Counted from the first letter of the stretch, positions 1 to 44,258 are shown. The stretch: DNA of 64,000 nt from Candidatus Shapirobacteria bacterium (GCA_017991615.1 JAGOQF010000001.1:53019-117018); one strand, 5' to 3'. The notes: generated by a model from the letters alone, not told the origin. Numbers and translations: made by a program.

Positions 1-39
1 TAGAAAAGAAGTTAATAAACTGGTAGAATATGACTGCTT

Positions 40-234
40 TGGCTCCGTCGTTCCACCAGGGCGGATCCAAGACTTAGTGGCCTAGGACTTCCGCCTTTGG
101 CGGACAATCGAGGGTTACAGATGGTGGTTAAAAATATGGCTCCGTCGTTCCACCAAGGCGGATCCAAGACTTAGTGGCCTAGGACTTCCGCCTTTGGCGG
201 ACAATCGAGGGTTACAGATGGTGGTTAAAAATAT
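40..234 (+). repeat. Two tandem ~98-bp degenerate tRNA-Glu-like units (40-137 and 138-234, one SNP apart). They share the 5' acceptor/D-arm and T-stem start with the downstream tRNA-Glu, but have a 24-nt insertion, a variant anticodon hairpin (tccgcc-ttt-ggcgga) and no 3' acceptor strand.
   Basis: Direct alignment by eye of units to each other and to the tRNA at 235-308. The variant arm cannot form a 7-nt anticodon loop. Confidence 0.8.
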
Positions 235-308
235 GGCTCCGTCGTCTAGTGGCCTAGGACTCCTGGCTTTCATCCAGGCAATCGAGGGTTCGAATCCCTC
301 CGGAGTCA
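235..308 (+). tRNA. tRNA-Glu (anticodon TTC)
   Basis: Manual cloverleaf: acceptor ggctccg/cggagtc, D-stem gtct/ggac, anticodon stem cctgg/ccagg with loop cTTTCAt, T-arm gaggg-ttcgaat-ccctc, discriminator A. Confidence 0.85.
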
Positions 309-309
309 C

Positions 310-549
310 ATGTATTATGTGTATGTATTGAGAAGCTTGAGGAGTGGAAAGTTTTATAAAGGTCAGACAGCTGATATAGATGATAGGTTGGATAGGCATT
401 TTAAAGGTCAAAGTATTGCCACTAAAAGTTTATTGCCGTTAGAGTTAGTTTTTGTTCAAATTTGTGAAAGTCGCAGTGAAGCGATGATTTTGGAAAGGTA
501 TTTAAAATCAGGAGTTGGGAGAGAATTTATAAAATATATTGTAGTCTAG
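310..549 (+). CDS. Small GIY-YIG nuclease domain protein (79 aa). It starts 1 nt after tRNA-Glu.
   Basis: N-terminus YVYVLRSLRSGKFYKGQTADIDDRLDRH matches the GIY-x10-YIG motif plus conserved Arg/His. The stop codon lies inside the downstream tRNA-fragment repeat. Confidence 0.7.
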   Translation: MYYVYVLRSLRSGKFYKGQTADIDDRLDRHFKGQSIATKSLLPLELVFVQICESRSEAMILERYLKSGVGREFIKYIVV

Positions 550-596
550 GACTTCCGCCTGTGGCGGACAATCGAGGGTTTTTATCTTGGAGTCAT
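543..596 (+). repeat. tRNA-Glu-like 3' fragment carrying the same variant anticodon hairpin (ttccgcctgtggcggac) plus a degenerate T-arm/acceptor (ttggagtca).
   Basis: Shares a ~40-nt core (taggacttccgcc-t/g-tggcggacaatcgagggtt) with the units at 40-234. Confidence 0.7.
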
Positions 597-851
597 AAAT
601 ATTTTAAGAAATGTGAAATAATGGATACAGTTTTAGGAGTGTTTTATTTTTATTTGTTATATCTTATAATATTGATTTTTTACATAATTGTTGCTATAAT
701 ATGTGATGTTTAGATATATTATTTATCAATAGCGATTAATATTATATATAAACAGAACGTTGACAATTTTACAAGCAATTTTGATCAGGTTTTATTAGAA
801 ATTAAAACTTGATTTTTAATATAAAGATGTCTTAGGTCAAAAAGAAAGGAA

Positions 852-1580
852 GTGTTTGGAGTGGTGGAAAATATTGGGTTGATGGAATTGCCGAGTGGTT
901 TATGTGAGTACCTGCGGTCTTTGCCTATGGAGGGTAAAGATGAGATTCCGGTGTATTATCGGAACAATAAAGAGGAGGTTTTTTTTGTAAGCGATTTTAT
1001 CTTAAGAGATGTAAAGACTTTTGAAAAAACTGCTGTTTCGGGCCTTTATCGAGGCGGTGGTTTGCTCAGATTACGAACTAAAAATGGTCAAGTAGTAATC
1101 TACGATGACCGTTATAAGTGGTTTCGTCTGATTGGCGGAATTGCTCATTATAGTGAGGGTTCCGATTTGTTTAAGACCGCTGTACGGGAATCAGTGGTCG
1201 AAGAATTGAGTGTACTAACTAAAAATGAAAATTTTCGGTTGGTACCAAAAGGTTTTAAGAGTTTTGTTAAAACAGAGATTCCTGGATGGGGAATTACTGT
1301 TAAAGATGTTGTCGAAACTGGTTCGTTGTTCCAACTTCAACACTTTTTCAATGATGATAATAAATCATTTGAGGTGGTGGTGGAGTGGGATTTGAGTAAC
1401 TACAATAATGGTGATTTCATAATTTTACACAATGAAGACTGGTTTCGTGGTGGACGAAGTGGGTTTACCCCTTTCGTCATAAACGAAACTGGTCTTATTG
1501 TAGGCCTATATGATGGTCGGCATGGTTATGTGCCTATGTCAGTACAGGCATTCCATCCGACGCTTAAAGCTTGCTTGTAA
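852..1580 (+). CDS. Hypothetical protein (242 aa) with a weak, non-canonical Nudix-box-like segment.
   Basis: Long ORF after an AT-rich promoter-like region. No confident family recognised. Confidence 0.4.
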   Translation: MFGVVENIGLMELPSGLCEYLRSLPMEGKDEIPVYYRNNKEEVFFVSDFILRDVKTFEKTAVSGLYRGGGLLRLRTKNGQVVIYDDRYKWFRLIGGIAHYSEGSDLFKTAVRESVVEELSVLTKNENFRLVPKGFKSFVKTEIPGWGITVKDVVETGSLFQLQHFFNDDNKSFEVVVEWDLSNYNNGDFIILHNEDWFRGGRSGFTPFVINETGLIVGLYDGRHGYVPMSVQAFHPTLKACL

Positions 1581-1584
1581 AGAC

Positions 1585-1650
1585 GGGCGACCGATATCAA
1601 AATGCATTTGCAAATTGATTATCAACGGTCGCCCTTCTTCGTTTAATTTA
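1585..1650 (+). terminator. Candidate stem-loop (gggcgaccg ... cggtcgccc, 9-bp stem with long loop) followed by a T-rich tract.
   Basis: Inverted repeat 1585-1593 / 1626-1634, then ttcttcgtttaattta. The loop is unusually long, so this is weak. Confidence 0.25.
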
Positions 1651-1723
1651 TTAATATTTAAATTAGTTGATTTTATTTTGGTTAGATATTTAATTATGAG
1701 AAGGTTTTGGAGTTGAGGTAGAA

Positions 1724-2395
1724 TTGGTGGTGGATGTCAAAATAGAACCAGGTTGGAAACAAGTTTTAGAAAAAGAGTTTAATGAGTCTTATTTTGAGGC
1801 GTTGGTGGCGTTTGTTAAGGAGGAGTATAAAAAATCAACGGTTTATCCGCCGGCAAAGTTTATTTTTAATGCTTTTGAGTTGACTCCTTTTGAGAAAGTT
1901 AAGGTGGTGATTTTGGGTCAAGATCCGTATCATGGGCCAAAACAAGCAAATGGGTTGGCATTTTCAGTAAATGACGGAATAGCTATTCCCCCATCGTTGG
2001 TTAATATTTACAAAGAAATAGAGACGGATTTGGGGATAAAGACGAAAAACAAAAATGGTAATTTGGAAAATTGGGCAAAACAAGGAGTATTGATGTTAAA
2101 TGCAACTTTGACGGTAAGAGCGGGGATGGCGGGGTCGCATCAAAATAAGGGTTGGGAGAGGTTTACTGATGCAGTGGTTAGAATTTTGTCGGAGCAAAAA
2201 GAAAATTTAGTGTTTATTTTATGGGGAGCTTACGCGCAAAAAAAAGGTAGGGTGATTGATGAAAACAAACATCTAGTAATCAAGTCAGTGCATCCCTCAC
2301 CATTGTCGGCATTCAACGGATTTTTTGGATCTAAACCATTTTCACAAACTAATGCTTATTTGATTTTTAGTGGTCAGGATCCAATTGAATGGTAA
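1724..2395 (+). CDS. ung: Uracil-DNA glycosylase (family 1 UDG)
   Basis: GQDPYH motif, LLLNATLTV-like segment and HPSPLSA C-terminal motif. Confidence 0.9.
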   Translation: MVVDVKIEPGWKQVLEKEFNESYFEALVAFVKEEYKKSTVYPPAKFIFNAFELTPFEKVKVVILGQDPYHGPKQANGLAFSVNDGIAIPPSLVNIYKEIETDLGIKTKNKNGNLENWAKQGVLMLNATLTVRAGMAGSHQNKGWERFTDAVVRILSEQKENLVFILWGAYAQKKGRVIDENKHLVIKSVHPSPLSAFNGFFGSKPFSQTNAYLIFSGQDPIEW

Positions 2396-3481
2396 TTAGG
2401 TGTAGGTTTTGACAGTTTCTTGGCCATTTAATACCCGAATAGCACCGTCACGAAGAGCTTCAAGTTCTTTTTCACCAGGGTAGACAGTGATACCAACATC
2501 AATGGTATATAAATCATGTTTCACTTTTTCAACAACTAGAGGCCAACGAACAACTCCGCCGGTTAAAATAATTTGATCAACTTTTTCACCTTCGAAGTCG
2601 GGAATTAAACAGCAAATATTTCGGGAAATACCGGCAATCATTTCGTCAACGATATCTTTTTTTTCGGCATCCAAACTAGGATATTTATTTTCAAGATCAA
2701 TCATATCTTTAGTTCCTAGAAGAGCAAATAGTCCGCCACCACCAAGAGTTTTATAACTGATTTCTTCTTTAGTATATTTGCCGGAAAAACATAAATCGAT
2801 TAACCCTTGAGCAGGAATTTGACCAGAACGTTCAGGAGTTATTGGACCTTCACCAGTAGTAGCGTTGATAACATTAATGGTTTTGCCTTTTTTGTGAGCA
2901 CCAAAGGAGAAACCGCCACCAAGATGAGCGCAGATTAAATTCAAATCTTTATATTTTTTATTGATTGATTTGGCATATTCGCGACAGACAGCTTTTTGGT
3001 TGAGAGCGTGCCAGCCGGGAGCTCTTTTTATTTCAGGAAAACCAGTGATTTTATGTTTTGGTTCAATTTCGTCAGTAGTAACCGGGTCAACGATAAAAGC
3101 TTTATCGGTGATGTTGAATTTTTTGGCAATTTCTAAGGCAATAGGAGCACCTAAATTTGAGGCATGATTGGCTTGAGGACGGTCGCGTAAATCATCAAGC
3201 ATTTTTTGATTTACTTGATAAGTTCCAGAACTAATAGGAGGTAACATGCCGCCACGACCGACAACGGCATCAAGTTGAGTAATATTTTTTTCAGTTAAAA
3301 TTTTTAGAATTTGTTCGAGGCGGTAGGGATATTGATCAAAAACGTTGCCAATTTTACCAAACTGTTGTTGGAAGTTTTGATCAATGGCATGATCGAGTTT
3401 GTGTTCAAAAACGAGATCTTCATTGTTGAACAGGGCAATTTTGGTGCTGGTGGAACCGGGGTTAATGACGAGAATTTTCAT
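2396..3481 (-). CDS. buk: Butyrate kinase / acetate-propionate kinase family (ASKHA)
   Basis: N-terminus MKILVINPGSTSTKIALF is typical of butyrate kinase. ~360 aa length fits. Confidence 0.6.
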   Translation of the reverse strand: MKILVINPGSTSTKIALFNNEDLVFEHKLDHAIDQNFQQQFGKIGNVFDQYPYRLEQILKILTEKNITQLDAVVGRGGMLPPISSGTYQVNQKMLDDLRDRPQANHASNLGAPIALEIAKKFNITDKAFIVDPVTTDEIEPKHKITGFPEIKRAPGWHALNQKAVCREYAKSINKKYKDLNLICAHLGGGFSFGAHKKGKTINVINATTGEGPITPERSGQIPAQGLIDLCFSGKYTKEEISYKTLGGGGLFALLGTKDMIDLENKYPSLDAEKKDIVDEMIAGISRNICCLIPDFEGEKVDQIILTGGVVRWPLVVEKVKHDLYTIDVGITVYPGEKELEALRDGAIRVLNGQETVKTYT

Positions 3482-4088
3482 ATTTAATAAAAATTAGTCC
3501 GAAGACGATAAAAATTAAACTTGTAATTTGAGCTAAACTTAGGACAAACACAGGAATAGTGTCTGTTCTAATAAACTCTAATATAAAACGTATTATACCG
3601 TAACTAATAAGATAAATACTGGTTTGATGACGATTAATTTTTTTGAAAATTAAATAAAGAAGGAAAAGACTAATGGATTCATATAACCAAATTGGTTGTT
3701 GATTTGGGCCATAAATTTCATGGTTGAAATAATTTCCCCAGCGACCAAGACTTTGACATAAAGGTACAATCGGAGCTAAGGTATCAGTGATTTTGAGAAA
3801 TTTAAGTTGATTCTTTTTGGCGAAAAAGTAGATAAAAATTAAACTGAAACTGAGAGCGCCAATGATACCCAGTCCCCCACCCCGGAGATTTAGAATTTGG
3901 AGAGGATTTTGAGAAAAGTAATTCCAGGCGGCAATAACACCATAAACTCTGGCGCCAATGATGCCTGATAAGATAAGCAAAAAAATGAATTTATTTTCTT
4001 TGGTTTTGGGGATGATTTGGTTATGGCGATAGAAATATTCAATGCCAACGACTAATGAAATTCCAAGTATAAACCCATAGATTGACAT
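3462..4088 (-). CDS. lgt: Prolipoprotein diacylglyceryl transferase
   Basis: Polytopic membrane protein with Lgt-like segments (GARVYGV, GRWGNYFNHEIYGP). The start ATG abuts the tRNA-like fragment at 4089-4160. Confidence 0.65.
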   Translation of the reverse strand: MSIYGFILGISLVVGIEYFYRHNQIIPKTKENKFIFLLILSGIIGARVYGVIAAWNYFSQNPLQILNLRGGGLGIIGALSFSLIFIYFFAKKNQLKFLKITDTLAPIVPLCQSLGRWGNYFNHEIYGPNQQPIWLYESISLFLLYLIFKKINRHQTSIYLISYGIIRFILEFIRTDTIPVFVLSLAQITSLIFIVFGLIFIKYENSRH

Positions 4089-4160
4089 GAGTGGGTCTGT
4101 GCGGGGCCAAACCCGCGACCAATCCCGATAAATCGGGACTGTTCTACCTGCAGACTGACA
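4089..4160 (-). repeat. tRNA-Lys-like 3' fragment (D-stem 3' strand through acceptor 3' end) with variant anticodon hairpin tcccgatttatcggga.
   Basis: Reverse complement caggtagaacagtcccgatttatcgggattggtcgcgggtttggccccgcacagacccactc aligns to tRNA-Lys at 4431-4503. It shares a 36-nt core with the copy at 4640-4675. Confidence 0.7.
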
Positions 4161-4214
4161 AGTTTATTTATAAAATTTAATTGTTTGAGAGGTAATTATT
4201 AATTTGATGATTTT

Positions 4215-4427
4215 TTAACTTTTTAGGCTTTTTAGATATTTTTCGGTTTTTAGAGCATCGGAATGATTATCAAATTTTTGGCTATATTTTAGTTTAACTG
4301 GAAGATATTTACTAGTAAATCCACTTTTACCATTTTGATGATCGTAGATTCTTTGTTTAAGATTGCGAGTGCTGCCTATATAATATTTTCCGTTTGATAA
4401 TTTTAGAATGTAAACCCAAGAGGACAT
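4215..4427 (-). CDS. Small GIY-YIG nuclease domain protein (70 aa). It starts 3 nt after the tRNA-Lys 3' end.
   Basis: WVYILKLSNGKYYIGSTRNLKQRIYDHQNG: GIY / YIG motifs, conserved Arg, His. Confidence 0.7.
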   Translation of the reverse strand: MSSWVYILKLSNGKYYIGSTRNLKQRIYDHQNGKSGFTSKYLPVKLKYSQKFDNHSDALKTEKYLKSLKS

Positions 4428-4430
4428 GAG

Positions 4431-4503
4431 TGGGTCCTGCGGGACTCGAACCCGCGACCAATTGCTTAAAAGGCAACTGCTCTACCGACTGAGCTAAAGA
4501 CCC
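4431..4503 (-). tRNA. tRNA-Lys (anticodon TTT)
   Basis: Reverse complement GGGTCTTTAGCTCAGTCGGTAGAGCAGTTGCCTTTTAAGCAATTGGTCGCGGGTTCGAGTCCCGCAGGACCCA folds as a cloverleaf. Anticodon loop cTTTTaa. Confidence 0.85.
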
Positions 4504-4740
4504 TGATTGTTAATGCGATTAAAGATTATCGCGACTGCTGTCCGACTGACCTGCCTGCCGGCAGGCAGGGCTAAAGACCCTGATTGTTAAATTTGTAGCA
4601 ATCTTTAGCGCTGAATCTGTTGATTCAGGCGACCAATCCCGATAAATCGGGACTGCTCTACCTGTTCGCAATCGCTGAAGCGATAGCTGATGCAGGCGGG
4701 CCGACTGATCTGCCTATCGGCAGACAAGGCTAAAAATTCT
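4504..4740 (-). repeat. Two degenerate tRNA-Lys-like copies (A 4504-4575, B 4576-4740) upstream of tRNA-Lys. They carry palindromic insertions: a perfect 20-nt palindrome cctgcctgccggcaggcagg and hairpins gcgat..atcgc, ctgaatc..gattcag, tctgcc..ggcaga.
   Basis: Both copies retain gggtctttagc / tcagtcgg / ttggtcgc tRNA segments interrupted by hairpins. Copy B carries the variant anticodon hairpin tcccgatttatcggga. Confidence 0.7.
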
Positions 4741-4764
4741 TAAAAATTTTAGGTGCGAAATGAC

Positions 4765-5076
4765 TTAAATAGTTTTAGCTTTTGGATTTCTAAGATAGTA
4801 TAGTTTTGATCGGCGGACTTTTGTTTTTGGTCCACGTAATTTTTTGATACTATCAATCCAAGGAGAATTAATCGGGAAAATTCTTTCAACAACCACAGCA
4901 TCTGAGGCTTGCTTTTGGACGGTGAAGTTTTTGTTGTCACCACGACCTTTGATAGCCAAAATAAGGCCATCGAAAGCTTGAAGTCTTTCTTTGTCTTTTT
5001 CTTTGATTTTGTAGTTGACCCTGATAGTGTCGCCTACAAAAAATGTCTGATCTTTGTGTGTTATTTTTATTGCCAT
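4765..5076 (-). CDS. rplS: 50S ribosomal protein L19
   Basis: GDTIRVNYKIKE...RLQAFDGLILAIKGRG...FTVQK...VERIFPINSP.IDSI matches the L19 consensus. Confidence 0.9.
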   Translation of the reverse strand: MAIKITHKDQTFFVGDTIRVNYKIKEKDKERLQAFDGLILAIKGRGDNKNFTVQKQASDAVVVERIFPINSPWIDSIKKLRGPKTKVRRSKLYYLRNPKAKTI

Positions 5077-5132
5077 AGTTTCTAAAAAATGCTTTGAAAT
5101 TATATCAAAATAAACTCTGGTAGTCTAGCAAG

Positions 5133-8100
5133 CTAGCTTGGATTTGACAAGAGGATGCTATCAATTTGTTCTTGGAGTTCTTGATTATAGTTAACACCAT
5201 AACTTAACGGCAGATTTTTACCGTTTGGCAGAATAATCAAACCGCGGTGACCGTTGGGGTTATTTTTTAGAAGACTATTTAATTTCATAAGTTGATTCTG
5301 AGTAGCAGTTTTGGGGATATTAATGACAAAGTCATATTTGCTGCTATTTTCTGGAACTTGATTGGTTAAAACATCAACTAAAATTGACGGGTTGTCATCT
5401 CTAATATTGATTTTACCTTCGATATAAACAGCTTTGTTTTCTTCTAAGAGATCTGATACTTTATCGTATATTTTTGGGAAAATGACAGCTTCGATTGAAC
5501 CAGTTTCATCTTCAAGGGTCACGAAGGCCATTTTGGCATTGTTTTTTTTAGTTAAAATAGTTTTAAATTTTTTAATAACAGCGACAGTTTTAATTGGAGA
5601 GTCATTAGGTTTTTGGCTGATTTCTTCGATTTTTGGTAGGTCAAGATCAAGGAAGGGTTGAAGAATTTTATTGATAGGATTTTCGGTAACAAAGACTCCA
5701 ATCAATTCTTTTTCCATAATTAGGCGTTGACTTTCACTCATAGGCTCAACATTAAGAAATTGATCTGGTGGAGCAGAAATTTTGTCTCCGGATTCATGAG
5801 GTGAGTCAAACAAACTAAATTGACCGCTATTTTTTTTGGAATTTAGTTTTTCGCAATCAGAACGGATTTTATCCAAGGAAGCCAAAATAGCGTTGCGTTC
5901 ACCGAACTGGTCTAAGGCACCGACTTTAATAAGGCTTTCCAAAACTCTTTTGTTAACTTTTTGACTATCAACTCTGATGCAAAAGTCACTAACGCTTAGA
6001 AAAGGACCATTTTTGTTTCTTTCAGCAAGGATATTGTCGATGGCGGCATTACCGACATTTTTGATAGCGCTTAAACCAAAACGAATAGCAGTGCCTTCAA
6101 GTGATTCTGGATTTTTCTCCATTTCAAAACCACTATCGGATTTGTTGATATCTGGTGGATTGACAATAATACCTAAGTGACGGCATTCATTGACACCATC
6201 GGTAATAGTTTCGGTATCACCAGATTCGGCAGTTAATAGGGCACACATATATTCAGCGGGAAAATTAGCTTTCATGTAGGCAGTACGGTAGGCTAACATT
6301 CCATAAGAAGCGGCATGAGCTTTGTTGAAACCGTAAGAAGTAAATGGTTCGATAAGTTTAAAAATTTCTTCAGCTTTGGTTTTGGTATAACCATTGGCAA
6401 TACAACCGGAAATGAATTTTTCTTTTTGAGCAGCCATTTCTTCGGGGATTTTTTTACCGATGGCTTTTCTAAATTTATCAACTTCAACCCAGTTGTAGCC
6501 AGCTAATTCGATGGCGGTGTACAAACAGTCGTCTTGATAGACTAAAAGTCCATAAGAACTTTGAAGGAATTTTTCCATTTTTGGGTCAAAATAAGAAACT
6601 TTAGAAGGGTCATTTTTGCGAGCAATATATTCGGGAATAATGGCCATAGGTCCGGGGCGGTAAAGAGCGACCATGGCCATAAGGTCTTCGACTCGGTTAG
6701 GTTTGAGTTCTTTGATCCATTTGGTCATACCTTCACCGGCTAGTTGAAAAACTCCCATGGTGTTGCCGCTAGATAACATATCAAAAGTTTTCTGGTTATC
6801 GAGAGGAATTTTACGGATATCGATGTCTAATCCACGGTTTTTTTTGACGTTTAAAACTGATTGACCTAGAAAAGATAAATTACGGATTCCTAAAATGTCA
6901 TATTTAATCAAGCCAACATCTTCACAGGCGTGCATTTCGTATTGAGTGATAGGTTTGTCACCACCAGTTTCGGTTTGAACTGGAGAAAAATCAGTGATAG
7001 TAGTGGGAGAAATAACAATAGCACAGGCGTGGACACTGATGTGTCGAGCACAGCCTTCAATTTGTTTAGCGGTGTCAATAATTTTTTTAGCATCAGCGTC
7101 AGTATCATACATTTGTTTAAGTTCTGGAGTGGTATTTAGGGCTTTGTCAATAGACATAGGGAAACCTTGGGAACCAAGAGGAATAATTTTACTGATTCTG
7201 TCACCAACAGCATATTCGTATCCTAAAACTCTAGCAGTATCTCGAATGGCGCCTTTGGCCATCATTCGACCAAAAGTACAGATTTGGGCGACGGCGTCTT
7301 GGCCATACTGCTCAATGATATGGTAAAGCATGCTTTGACGTTTATCGTCGGCAACATCGAGATCAATATCTGGCGGTGAAGGACGGTCTTTGTTGAGAAA
7401 TCTTTCAAAAGGGAGTTGATAGATTAAAGGATCAACAGAGGTAATACCCAAGACAAAGGCGACCAAACAACCACCAGCGGAGCCTCTAGTATTGGTGGGA
7501 GTGTTATGTTTTTCGGTCCAACAGATAAAGTCATACATAATTAAAAAGTAAGCGGCATAACCTTTGGGATTGATAACATTGAGTTCATAGTTAAGCCGTT
7601 CTTTGACTTCTGGAGTTAATTTTCCATAATGTTTCTTGGCTCGTTGAAAGACTAAATCATGAAGAGTTTCTTCAGCGGTTTTATTGGGGGGAAGTTTAAA
7701 CTTGGGAAAATACCACTTACCGAGTTCAATTTCCAATTGACATTTGTCGGCGATTTTTTGAGTGTTTTCTAGAGCGTCGGGATAATCGGCAAATTGTTCG
7801 GCCATTTCTTCGGGAGATTTGATATAGAAATCAGGAATATTAATCATAGTGAGACGCTTAGAATCGTTGATAGTGGTTTGAGTATTAATCATCATCAAAA
7901 CATCTTGAGCAAAAGCATCTTCTTTTTTGAGATAGTGAGCGTCGTTGGTGGCAACCAAGGGAATTCCTAGTTCACGGCTGATTTTGATGATACCTTCGTT
8001 AGCTTTTTCCTGGCCGTCTAGGTTAGGATGACGTTGGATTTCCAAGTAATAGTCTTCGCCAAATAAATTTTGAAAATCTTTAGCTCTGATTTTGGCTTGG

Positions 8101-14723: not shown

Positions 14724-14802
14724 TCACCCCAACCCAAAGTCGTATTATCTCACGCCGTCCGGCGCGGCCGGACGTGAGGACGACTTTTAAGGTTGGGGGT
14801 GA
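14724..14802. other. GC-rich 79-nt imperfect palindrome with nested core hairpin gtccggc-gcg-gccggac. Candidate replication origin / nick-site hairpin, or regulatory structure.
   Basis: Arms tcaccccaacccaaagtcg...ctcacg and cgtgag...cgacttttaaggttgggggtga are reverse-complementary with bulges. Local GC far above the flanks. Confidence 0.5.
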
Positions 14803-42675: not shown

Positions 42676-44258
42676 GATGATGATTTAGGATTGTTGATGG
42701 TGACCATCATAGTAAATTTTGGTTGAGAACAAGGCCAAAATCCGATATAAGATCCGATAGTGGCTGAATCGGTATATCCGCCTTTAATGGCTACTTGGGC
42801 GGTACCGCTTTTAGCACAAACTTCAAGATTTTTAGGTTTAAAAATGGAGACGGCGCCGGTGTCAACGGCATATTTTAAGATAGATTTGATTTCAGAAACA
42901 GACTCGTGTTTAAAAACACGAGATTCTTTTTTACCCTTGACAGGGTAAGAGCGATTTAATTGGTCAGAAAAAGATTGAGCAACTTTAGGATTGACTAAAA
43001 TACCATCATTGGCAATGGTATTGAAAGCCTGAAGCATGCCGATTTGAGTGACAACAATCCCCTGCCCGAATGAAGCTGTGGCTAAATCAATTTCAGGCCA
43101 ATTGTTTTTGACAGCAGCTTTGACTTCGCCTTGAAGGTCAATACCGGTTTTTTGGTTTAAACCTAAACGTTGGTAGTATTTGAGGAAATTATTTAAACCT
43201 AATTCTCGGATAATATGGCTCATACCGATGTTATCGGAATTTTTGATAATATCTTTTAAGGTTGATTCAGGGTGAGTGGATTTATCCCAATTATTGATGG
43301 TGTACTGACCAATGGTTAATGGTTGAGAACATTGGTGACAAATATAGTCTGGGGTGATTGATTTTTGATCTAAGGCCATGGTAACAACTATGGGTTTAAA
43401 GATAGATCCAGGTTCAAATAGGTCAGATATGGCTGGGTTTCTGGAAGCGCTAGGAGTGGCAATGGTATCGGCGGTTTGACTGGTCATGGCTACGATTTGA
43501 CCGGTTTTGGTTTCCATAACGATGATTGAGCCAGAATCAGCTTGGTATTGACTGATACCGTGAGCTAATTCTGTTTCGGCTTGGTACTGAATATAGCGAT
43601 TGATAGAGGTGAGAATAGTGTGACCATCGATTGATGGGGAACTCCAACTTTTTTTAGTAAGGATAGTTTTACCGACAGCGTCTTGGGGTGACCAAGTAAA
43701 TCCGGTTCGGCCGGTGAGTTGTTTGTTGTAATAAGCTTCAAGACCACCATAGCCAGTTTGGTAACCGTAATGATCGTTGGCAACAAAGCCGAGCATGTCA
43801 GCAGCTAACTTGTTTTCAGGATAATATCGGGAACTATATTTTTTAAAAGTGAGTCCATTGATGTTTTGAAGTTGATCTTTTTCAGATTCAGAAAAATCAG
43901 TGGTAAGATCAAGCCATTTTTGGTTGGGATTAGTTTTGAAATTATTAAGGTGAGGATTTTGATTAATAAATTCGGGATGAACAGAATCAATTTTGTTTAA
44001 AATATCATCGATATTTTCAGTCATATTTGGCTTATATATAGAGAGTCGATAACTAGTTTGATTGAGAACCAGAGGGAAATTGTCAGAGGCCAAAATTTGG
44101 CCTCGAGAAGGGTTTTTGATTTCAAGTTTGTAAGTTTGACTAAGAGCTTTTTCTTTTAACTCTGGACTTTTGATGACTTGCCAATAAAAAAGTCTGCCAG
44201 TGACAGCTAGAAAAGAAAAGATAAATGAAAATAATAAAATGCGATAGCGATGGATCAT
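42609..44258 (-). CDS. ftsI: Penicillin-binding protein transpeptidase (FtsI / PBP3-like)
   Basis: N-terminal TM anchor, SxxK (GSIFKP), KSGTA motif. Confidence 0.85.
   Translation of the reverse strand: MIHRYRILLFSFIFSFLAVTGRLFYWQVIKSPELKEKALSQTYKLEIKNPSRGQILASDNFPLVLNQTSYRLSIYKPNMTENIDDILNKIDSVHPEFINQNPHLNNFKTNPNQKWLDLTTDFSESEKDQLQNINGLTFKKYSSRYYPENKLAADMLGFVANDHYGYQTGYGGLEAYYNKQLTGRTGFTWSPQDAVGKTILTKKSWSSPSIDGHTILTSINRYIQYQAETELAHGISQYQADSGSIIVMETKTGQIVAMTSQTADTIATPSASRNPAISDLFEPGSIFKPIVVTMALDQKSITPDYICHQCSQPLTIGQYTINNWDKSTHPESTLKDIIKNSDNIGMSHIIRELGLNNFLKYYQRLGLNQKTGIDLQGEVKAAVKNNWPEIDLATASFGQGIVVTQIGMLQAFNTIANDGILVNPKVAQSFSDQLNRSYPVKGKKESRVFKHESVSEIKSILKYAVDTGAVSIFKPKNLEVCAKSGTAQVAIKGGYTDSATIGSYIGFWPCSQPKFTMMVTINNPKSSSWGSNTAAPIWFKMVSKINGLL

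Follow-up and report, generated by a model that had tools for sequence, protein, structure and literature searches.

A degenerating Ssn-like nuclease and hairpin cassette as the probable source of tRNA-like repeats at a Shapirobacteria tRNA-Lys gene

SsnA of Neisseria meningitidis, a single-domain GIY-YIG nuclease of 94 amino acids (aa; CDD family cd10448, catalytic residues Y6, Y17 and E64), binds a hairpin repeat, NTS (CGTCATTCCCGCGMAVGCGGGAATCYRG), on one strand only and only when that DNA is single-stranded, does not bind RNA, and cuts a few nucleotides (nt) upstream of the repeat, with a minimal substrate of 37 nt (Chenal et al. 2025, PMC11893778). Related hairpins (SRM) lie near 71% of the SsnA homologs, and 42% are bracketed by them; the "NTS-ssnA-NTS" unit has been likened to an insertion sequence, its mobility being only hypothesized (PMC11893778). 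An effect on transformation is described in Neisseria, the role outside Neisseria is stated as unknown, and the word tRNA is absent from the main text of that paper (PMC11893778). Here we analyze a 64-kb stretch of the genome of a Candidatus Shapirobacteria bacterium (GCA_017991615.1 JAGOQF010000001.1:53019-117018; hereafter the window, with coordinates counted from its start) in which a tRNA-Lys gene and a GIY-YIG open reading frame (ORF) lie between tRNA-like repeats that carry a 16-nt hairpin, here called H. Our favored explanation, which we consider probable, is that the locus is a degenerating Ssn-like nuclease and hairpin cassette living at the tRNA-Lys gene, with H as its presumed cognate hairpin.

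The locus appears Ssn-like in every architectural respect tested, while a hairpin set on a tRNA-like scaffold and a gene set beside a tRNA would make it a new form. The protein is single-domain, with orthologs of 85-87 aa whose Y6, Y16 and E62 fall at the positions of SsnA Y6, Y17 and E64. As in NTS-ssnA-NTS, a short GC-rich hairpin lies to either side of the gene, in the window and at three related loci (L088, L011 and L012). The palindrome core (TCCCGC/A...G/TCGGGA here, TTCCCGCG...CGCGGGAA in NTS, dRS3 type) is conserved in sequence and not in structure alone, the conserved unit of ~36 nt compares with the 37 nt of the minimal SsnA substrate, and different protein/hairpin pairs coexist, two of them in this window. 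Unlike an NTS, however, the hairpin here is found inside partial tRNA copies, so that its flanks are D-arm and variable-loop sequence rather than CGTCA.../...AATCYRG, and the gene adjoins a functional tRNA encoded on its own strand, in most cases without any spacer.

On the minus strand the order is rplS, copy B, copy A, tRNA-Lys(UUU), GIY-YIG ORF, 3' tRNA-like fragment and lgt, made up of the following features:

4765-5076, minus strand: rplS (ribosomal protein L19), the upstream flank (Pfam PF01245, E 2.7e-29)
~4592-4738, minus strand: copy B, a tRNA-Lys-derived, cloverleaf-like element with four perfect hairpins inside a ~10-bp closing stem (sequence reading, fold)
4709-4724, minus strand: hairpin TCTGCC-GATA-GGCAGA at the D-loop position of copy B (sequence, fold)
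4637-4652, minus strand: hairpin H (TCCCGAT-TT-ATCGGGA), replacing the anticodon arm of copy B (repeat search)
4611-4628, minus strand: hairpin CTGAATC-AACA-GATTCAG, replacing the T arm of copy B (sequence, fold)
4504-4590, minus strand: copy A, a tandem duplicate (21-nt repeat, fold)
4550-4569, no strand assigned: perfect 20-nt palindrome CCTGCCTGCCGGCAGGCAGG in the D-loop of copy A, as first annotated (one occurrence in the window, 0 expected by chance)
4431-4503, minus strand: functional tRNA-Lys(UUU) with no encoded CCA (ARAGORN; Rfam RF00005, 76.3 bits)
4215-4427, minus strand: single-domain GIY-YIG ORF of 70 aa, ending at a premature TAA (Pfam PF01541, E 1.7e-16)
4164-4214, minus strand: decayed 3' end of the ancestral 87-aa ORF, 16 in-frame codons and a stop (KIIKLIITSQTIKFYK and stop, matching P0001 and L088)
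4092-4159, minus strand: downstream partial tRNA-Lys copy, D-loop to 3' end, with mutated T loop and acceptor (repeats; orthologous copies in L088, L011 and L012)
4123-4138, minus strand: hairpin H (TCCCGAT-TT-ATCGGGA) at the anticodon-arm position of the downstream copy (repeat search)
4084-4096, minus strand: junction repeat ACCCACTCATGTC, made of the tRNA-like 3' end, 3 nt (ctc) and the lgt ATG (identical to 4423-4435)
3462-4088, minus strand: lgt (prolipoprotein diacylglyceryl transferase), the downstream flank (Pfam PF01790, E 1.6e-42)

The tRNA-Lys look-alikes are partial tRNA copies in which the anticodon arm has been swapped for a conserved DNA hairpin. H occurs twice in the 64 kb, with 0 occurrences expected by chance, and its two copies bracket [tRNA-Lys + ORF] on either side. 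A first-pass annotation of this DNA had described direct copies of a variant tRNA-like core to either side of the tRNA gene and GIY-YIG ORF, and the H-bearing core is indeed present on both sides: the 36 nt said to be common to copy B (4629-4664) and the downstream fragment (4115-4150) are 97% identical, and a 29-nt version of the core matches just these two places in the window, again with 0 expected. The variant anticodon hairpin that it saw in the fragment does occupy the anticodon-arm position, but as the conserved hairpin H and not as a product of decay. Its tRNA-Lys-like copies A and B both exist, although the tRNA-like part of copy A begins at 4580 (its leader at 4590) and not at 4575. 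For the tRNA-Lys that it called authentic, ARAGORN and Rfam agree. Copies A and B and the 3' fragment fail as tRNAs: ARAGORN does not call them, their anticodon arm is a hairpin with a 2-4-nt loop, and they match no Rfam family in a search (E<=10, positions 1-6000) that matched only the two true tRNAs.

Copy B folds at -62.4 kcal/mol (z = -6.4) and its L088 ortholog at -72.6 kcal/mol (z = -6.6), the T-arm-position hairpin keeping its stem in L088 with a different loop. Copy A comprises a 10-nt leader, the tRNA 5' end, the palindrome, the D-loop with the D-stem and, in altered form, an anticodon-arm hairpin (GCGAT-N8-ATCGC). H, the T arm and the 3' acceptor are all missing from it, and a 21-nt stretch of leader and tRNA 5' end is repeated exactly (4570-4590 and 4493-4513, 100%). 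Four of the six GC-rich perfect hairpins in this AT-rich window fall at its two GIY-YIG/tRNA loci. The other two, both with 8-bp stems, lie at 14756-14774 (CGTCCGGC-GCG-GCCGGACG) and 44086-44104 (GAGGCCAA-AAT-TTGGCCTC). A role for H as a transcription terminator was considered and rejected, no run of T following it.

The 70-aa GIY-YIG ORF begins where it had been annotated, its ATG standing 3 nt after the discriminator base of the tRNA. The nearest relatives of its product (69-96% identity) are 85-87 aa long and consist of the GIY-YIG domain alone, which covers them end to end, with no extra DNA-binding domain. The window has TAA where these orthologs have a Gln codon. Because the 16 in-frame codons past this TAA match the C-terminus of the 85-87-aa orthologs, the 54 nt described at first as a spacer after the ORF are really the dead end of the gene, the ancestral frame having stopped 4 nt ahead of the tRNA-like fragment. 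The 70-aa ORF is evidently a freshly truncated 87-aa gene, and the window cassette, given its nonsense codon and the mutations in T arm and acceptor, is to all appearances degenerating. Y6, Y16, R26, H30 and E62 are invariant or nearly so among 14 aligned sequences, and the catalytic Tyr/Tyr/Arg/Glu set of GIY-YIG enzymes is present. NCBIfam and PADLOC return nothing specific (a weak group-I-intron-endonuclease match, and a weak "HEase" match below cut-off). The nearest solved relatives by sequence are the UPF0213 or YhbQ-type proteins of PDB entries 1zg2 (E 7e-5) and 1ywl (E 5.5e-4), which are of the same size and likewise single-domain, with a low similarity of ~30% identity; we know of no hairpin or tRNA association for proteins of this type.

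Related loci supply both an empty and several filled versions of this site, all of those compared having rplS as a neighbor. (Ten contigs that encode the identical 70-aa protein are clonal in the region and hold no comparative signal.) The empty site, L092, reads rplS, 120 nt, tRNA-Lys, 4 nt (ccac) and the lgt ATG, without GIY-YIG gene or pseudo-copies, its junction (within 3413-3500) being ACCCAccacATGTCA. L088, whose L19 is 95% identical to that of the window, has copy B, tRNA, a full 87-aa ORF, the H-bearing fragment and lgt, and no copy A. Upstream of its tRNA, L011 has two clean ~105-nt units, each composed of leader, intact tRNA 5' half, hairpin and variable loop, with an unrelated hairpin standing in for the T arm; tRNA, ORF and fragment follow, the stop codon TAG of the ORF falling inside the D-stem of the fragment. 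L012 has tRNA, a 35-nt hairpin core, ORF and fragment, the last matching the true tRNA exactly in its T arm and acceptor. The T loop and acceptor of the fragment are thus intact in L011 and L012 and mutated in L088 and the window, and the cassette shows presence/absence polymorphism at a fixed site, empty in L092 and filled in the other four.

The comparison shows, at the level of sequence, an apparent insertion of the cassette between tRNA-Lys and lgt that duplicated the tRNA from D-loop to 3' end together with its trailer and ATGTC. The repeat ACCCACTCATGTC recurs at 4423-4435 as the tRNA-Lys 3' end and the GIY-YIG ATG, with ctc between, and because it extends past the tRNA end, the start codons of the GIY-YIG gene and lgt stand in the same duplicated context. 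Copy A is apparently a recent tandem duplication, since it is missing from L088 despite the 95% identity of L19, and arrays of such tRNA-like units are evidently dynamic. Among the Lys-locus orthologs, the ratio of nonsynonymous to synonymous substitution (dN/dS) is 0.07-0.24 at dS of 0.9-2.5, where synonymous sites are saturated, and yet not one position of the 16-nt H, TCCCGATTTATCGGGA, differs among the window, L088, L011 and L012. This low dN/dS, with H unchanged at saturated dS, argues that protein and hairpin are maintained by selection and are not drifting debris.

The window contains a second, sister locus at a tRNA-Glu gene:

41-234, plus strand: two 97-nt tandem pseudo-tRNA-Glu units (41-137 and 138-234), each with TCCGCC-TTT-GGCGGA at the anticodon-arm position (sequence)
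235-309, plus strand: tRNA-Glu(UUC) (ARAGORN, Rfam)
310-549, plus strand: GIY-YIG paralog of 79 aa, starting directly after tRNA-Glu (Pfam, E 7.8e-15)
543-596, plus strand: 3' tRNA-Glu-like fragment with hairpin TCCGCC-TGT-GGCGGA at 554-568 (sequence)

The stop codon TAG of this second GIY-YIG gene also lies inside the downstream tRNA-like fragment. Common ancestry of the two GIY-YIG proteins, which the first-pass annotation had proposed to check by alignment, is borne out: they are homologous old paralogs (38% identity, E 7e-15). So is the equivalence of the variant hairpins of the two loci, each of which occupies the anticodon arm. One genome therefore bears two distinct protein/hairpin pairs, TCCCGAT at tRNA-Lys and TCCGCC at tRNA-Glu. 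Another member of the species (L004) has one 97-nt pseudo-tRNA-Glu unit instead of two, a copy-number polymorphism within the species. In a further member (L003), unrelated DNA with a PLDc_2 gene and helix-turn-helix genes stands where the window (1-310) has the tRNA-Glu and its pseudo-copies, the replacement junction being exactly the ATG of the GIY-YIG ORF. The D-loop hairpins of the Lys-locus copies, at 4709-4724 (TCTGCC..GGCAGA) and 4550-4569 (CCTGCCTGC..GCAGGCAGG), resemble the Glu-locus class TCCGCC..GGCGGA, and they also resemble hairpins of class TCTGCC..GGCAGA upstream of a homologous ORF in L038 (Planctomycetia); they may be sites for the second nuclease paralog. Between the Glu locus and a uracil-DNA glycosylase-like gene lies a 242-aa ORF with no Pfam match (852-1580, plus strand).

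A degenerate-peptide scan, keeping one genome per species, gave 73 homologous loci, chosen by similarity to the window protein, and hence a biased sample of the Ssn family, with several of them cut by contig ends where repeats break the assembly. They span Patescibacteria, Bacteroidota, Ignavibacteria, Planctomycetota, Saganbacteria, Omnitrophota, Marinimicrobia and others. Of these loci, 52 have a same-strand tRNA no more than 150 nt from the ORF (upstream in 27, downstream in 29, in some on both sides), and 25 isoacceptors are represented; a single locus has an opposite-strand tRNA alone. A CCCG..CGGG hairpin lies within 300 nt of the ORF in 50 of the 73. Additional partial copies are present at most of the loci, with 100% identity to positions 1-28 and/or 44-76 of the local tRNA but not to its anticodon arm, and across phyla and at least 12 isotypes the arm is replaced in these copies by the consensus TCCCG[A/C]..[T/G]CGGGA, as in the following examples:

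tRNA-Tyr copy: replacing hairpin TCCCGACCGCAGTCGGGA
tRNA-Gly copy: replacing hairpin TCCCGCTCGGAGCGGGA
tRNA-Val copy: replacing hairpin TCCCGATGATATCGGGA
tRNA-Met copy: replacing hairpin TCCCGACCAAAGTCGGGA
tRNA-Ala copy: replacing hairpin TCCCGCTAGCTAGCGGGA
tRNA-Ser copy: replacing hairpin TCCCGCATTTTGCGGGA

A second hairpin class, TCCGCC..GGCGGA, includes that of the Glu locus. Inner stem pairs covary, being Watson-Crick in 61/66 and 53/66 cases with three pair types at each. The class of the hairpin agrees with that of the nearest protein neighbor in 45 of 55 comparisons against 29 expected, a level that none of 2000 permutations reaches, though shared ancestry contributes to it. At three loci (L031, L060 and L069) the hairpin sequence has been inserted cleanly into the anticodon loop, following position 35. 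Because nearest-neighbor proteins at 50-68% identity occupy different isotypes and different phyla, the unit moves over evolutionary time. The conclusion drawn from the two loci of the window, that this is a structured, recurring element and not random decay, is upheld by the same design in dozens of loci from many phyla as well as in related Shapirobacteria (L011, L012 and L088).

Nor is the design an artifact of metagenome bins, since a tandem array is found in a cultured organism, Salegentibacter tibetensis JZCK2 (L043, 1400-2900). Three ~118-nt hairpin-bearing 5' copies of tRNA-Val precede the tRNA-Val itself, which is followed by 386-nt units of [hairpin copy + 81-aa GIY-YIG ORF], two of them complete and one partial, the copies in these units having a second hairpin of the same type at the T-loop position. 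Homologs are likewise encoded by the cultured Algoriphagus aquatilis (L073) and Jejuia spongiicola (L053). Other variants were seen in passing. In L198 (1050-1600) a tRNA-Ser-like copy with the hairpin at both anticodon-arm and T-arm positions is followed by a duplicated ORF 5' end, and in L016 (406-479) a second small hairpin is nested in the loop of the main one. ARAGORN reports a "tRNA-???" with an 8-nt anticodon loop (caca) in L071 (2728-2805), where the arm is really a hairpin of the TCCCGAAT..ATTCGGGA type. A scan of viral contigs gave four weak homologs, with no tRNA or hairpin nearby. A literature search on GIY-YIG proteins linked to tRNA-like sequences, anticodon arms, tRNA adjacency or tRNA fragments found no description of the arrangement.

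The hairpin also has a life away from tRNAs. The exact 16-mer TCCCGATTTATCGGGA is present in at least 120 metagenome contigs (L094-L213) from unrelated environmental bacteria, mostly away from tRNAs (13 of 123 occurrences among the matches listed lie within 500 nt of one). Many of these 16-mers form the core of longer REP-like palindromes with NTS-like flanks, ..GTCATTGCGAG-core-CGAAGCAATCTC.. (GTCAT.../...AATC) or, on the other strand, CGTCA-core. Some adjoin GIY-YIG ORFs, as in L185 and L192, with L198 as the tRNA-embedded form. The GIY-YIG protein of L185, which is flanked by canonical-looking hairpins, shares 31% identity with the L088 protein (E 3e-8). That H evolved in place from an anticodon arm, a notion to which loops that keep the anticodon triplet lend some color, was set aside as unlikely, the identical 16-mer being common far from tRNAs.

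Several observations weigh against reading the locus as an Ssn-like cassette. The published SRM pattern, HGTCWYN(0-2)YYVSBRHN(0-5)WNVSBRGN(0-2)RNCYNB, has 0 matches in the window, while the control NTS was matched, and gives one chance-like match in the 73 loci. It fails because the flanks of the hairpin are tRNA sequence, the palindrome core alone being shared. We use the label "Ssn-like" and do not claim strict membership. H is found only at the tRNA-Lys locus in the 64-kb window, against hundreds of dispersed NTS copies in Neisseria. The L088 protein is about equally distant from the L185 protein and from the solved UPF0213 proteins. The asymmetry of the loop (TTTA or TAAA) gives no read strand, as canonical-looking metagenome repeats occur in both orientations relative to the GTCAT/CGTCA flank, and the ends of partial copies, at 7-26 nt from H, are too variable to pinpoint a cut site. 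Finally, L090 is without a GIY-YIG gene and yet has a copy-A-like partial 5' copy of tRNA-Lys. The D-loop of this copy (within 3400-4040) carries a GC-rich hairpin of 39 nt, and the copy breaks off precisely where the anticodon arm would begin (position 27); elsewhere in the locus a leftover piece of the lgt 5' end precedes inserted ORFs of 108 and 558 aa, both of unknown function.

By analogy with SsnA, hairpin H looks like the predicted target of the adjacent GIY-YIG nuclease. The protein would bind H only in single-stranded DNA, as during replication, transcription or DNA uptake, and would nick a few nucleotides from it, as SsnA does at NTS (PMC11893778). Repair of such breaks against neighboring tRNA homology could make and reshuffle the tandem partial tRNA copies, in which replacement of the anticodon arm would both stop them from acting as tRNAs and mark them as nuclease sites. 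Some 10-13 nt 5' and 8 nt 3' of H are retained with it, and would belong to the recognition unit, which fits the 36-nt core. The module could be either purely selfish or of service to its host, for example in limiting recombination of incoming DNA, as in Neisseria.

Expression is probably from the tRNA transcript, because an ATG 0-3 nt after a tRNA without CCA leaves no room for a promoter or Shine-Dalgarno sequence. The gene would be co-transcribed with the tRNA and translated as a near-leaderless mRNA freed by tRNA 3' processing. At the empty site of L092, lgt apparently has the same tRNA-abutting arrangement. Near-leaderless starts of this kind are seen for lgt 4 nt after tRNA-Lys in L092 and for both lgt and the GIY-YIG gene 3 nt after tRNA or tRNA-like ends in the window, which suggests that tRNA-mRNA co-transcripts with processing-dependent, near-leaderless translation occur in this lineage.

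Such start codons, 0-4 nt after tRNA or tRNA-like 3' ends at filled and empty sites alike, are also what could commend an explanation at the level of RNA only, in which the tRNA-like copies are processing or stabilizing elements for RNase P and RNase Z that free and protect co-transcribed mRNAs (the nuclease gene, lgt), the altered arm serving only to block charging and use in translation. The tRNA is on the ORF strand in 52 of the 53 loci with a tRNA within 150 nt, copy B has a very stable, closed multi-hairpin fold (z about -6.5), and the downstream copies of L011 and L012 keep a T arm and 3' acceptor identical to those of the tRNA despite saturated synonymous divergence. The downstream copies, however, have no 5' acceptor strand and the upstream copies no T arm or 3' acceptor, and because these parts are missing they are not normal RNase P or RNase Z substrates. 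Conservation of the TCCCG/CGGGA stem sequence across phyla and isotypes goes beyond what structure alone can explain, this account also fails to explain why the class of hairpin follows the protein, and SsnA does not bind RNA (PMC11893778). As a full explanation we judge it rather unlikely, but an RNA-level role may well hold where expression of the gene is concerned, next to a role at the level of DNA. Quite unlikely, in our estimate, is a free-standing homing endonuclease that makes a double-strand break in the anticodon-arm region of the tRNA and has its gene copied in by repair, the hairpin copies being the cleavage-resistant form of the target that stays behind at the insertion site. The GIY-YIG fold, presence/absence polymorphism at exactly one site, and related proteins at different isotypes and phyla would all suit it, as would the clustering of partial-copy breakpoints at the anticodon arm, where the L090 copy stops. 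But the protein is a bare catalytic domain of ~87 aa, without the DNA-binding domain of site-specific GIY-YIG homing enzymes; the functional tRNA beside the gene keeps its normal, supposedly cleavable anticodon arm; and immunity would need no more than some change to the arm, whereas the same TCCCG..CGGGA hairpin is used for at least 12 isotypes. The abundance of the identical 16-mer away from tRNAs, and the mostly vertical inheritance of the elements under purifying selection, speak against it as well. Its precedent would be SegB of phage T4, a homing endonuclease of the GIY-YIG type encoded within a cluster of tRNA genes (PMC2330249), with SegB-driven amplification of the tRNA locus (PMC13096335), and SegB does resemble the present system in having a GIY-YIG gene among or next to tRNA genes, presence/absence polymorphism, and local segmental duplication or amplification. 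It differs in being multi-domain, phage-encoded and a cutter of double-stranded DNA, where here bare catalytic domains are found in bacterial chromosomes. We know of no hairpin sites or anticodon-arm replacements associated with SegB.

Far less probable than either is that the locus is neutral debris, with tRNA duplications from slippage or integrase-type insertion in decay, and the hairpins ordinary lineage-specific palindromes unrelated to the GIY-YIG gene. Tandem-unit number does vary within a species (L004), copy A is young and without H, L090 has a partial duplicate but no gene, the window cassette is visibly decaying, and integration of mobile elements is known to leave fragments of tRNA genes behind (PMC9897764). 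Integrase islands and prophages at tRNA attachment (att) sites are also like this locus in that direct repeats of part of a tRNA flank an insert beside the intact tRNA (PMC9897764). They are unlike it in the rest: there is no integrase gene near this locus, only the tRNA and the 70-aa ORF lie between the repeats, the insert measures ~0.3 kb, 5' parts of the tRNA are repeated and not just the 3', att-like parts, and a conserved foreign hairpin stands for the anticodon arm. The idea that the repeats are remnants of integrase att sites was rejected on the absence of an integrase and the duplication of 5' tRNA parts. Debris is contradicted by the selection on H and by the recurrence of the design in many phyla. 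It would leave unexplained why H is identical across lineages with saturated synonymous sites, why the same hairpin consensus recurs at the same tRNA position beside homologous ORFs in many phyla, and why GC-rich perfect hairpins are nearly confined to the two GIY-YIG/tRNA loci of the window.

The Ssn-like cassette that we favor invites comparison with REP/BIME-RAYT systems and IS200/IS605 elements, in which likewise a small nuclease gene is flanked by recognized hairpins, action is on single-stranded DNA (here by analogy), and arrays change in copy number; an analogy of the REP/RAYT type was also made by Chenal et al. (PMC11893778). The difference is that no HUH (Y1) transposase was found in the present unit, whose sole protein is the GIY-YIG protein, and that the hairpins are grafted into tRNA-like scaffolds. 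A hydrolytic GIY-YIG enzyme alone is incapable of strand transfer. It is possible, but in our view doubtful, that Ssn-type cassettes are nonetheless autonomous mobile elements that specifically colonize tRNA genes and constitute a transposase-free class of mobile DNA. Such an element would have as its sole protein a nuclease of ~90 aa that nicks single-stranded DNA. It would enter by inserting its hairpin at the anticodon arm of a tRNA duplicate, where the universally conserved tRNA blocks on either side would offer homology to host repair. For its expression it would use the tRNA promoter and 3' processing, while driving tandem duplication of tRNA genes, and it would hop between tRNA isotypes and phyla over evolutionary time.

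The loci described here may also be of practical consequence. They explain a class of "degenerate tRNA" repeats and contig breaks found by tRNA genes in metagenome-assembled genomes, and they call for caution in annotation, as some odd tRNA calls (the "tRNA-???" of L071, for example) are hairpin-bearing copies. By analogy with SsnA, they might provide tools, as natural pairs of single-stranded-DNA nuclease and site with new flanking specificities. The Salegentibacter tibetensis array of L043 offers a tractable experimental system.

For the Ssn nucleases themselves, described only in 2025 and with their role open (PMC11893778), the tRNA loci make that question testable. They add a clear contrast of empty and filled sites with a defined point of hairpin grafting, the anticodon arm; a defined niche, tRNA genes of 25 isoacceptors in many phyla, including both bacteria of the candidate phyla radiation (CPR) and cultured Bacteroidota; and evidence of long-term purifying selection on protein and hairpin. 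Should these cassettes prove to be mobile elements of tRNA genes, that would answer what Ssn nucleases do outside Neisseria.

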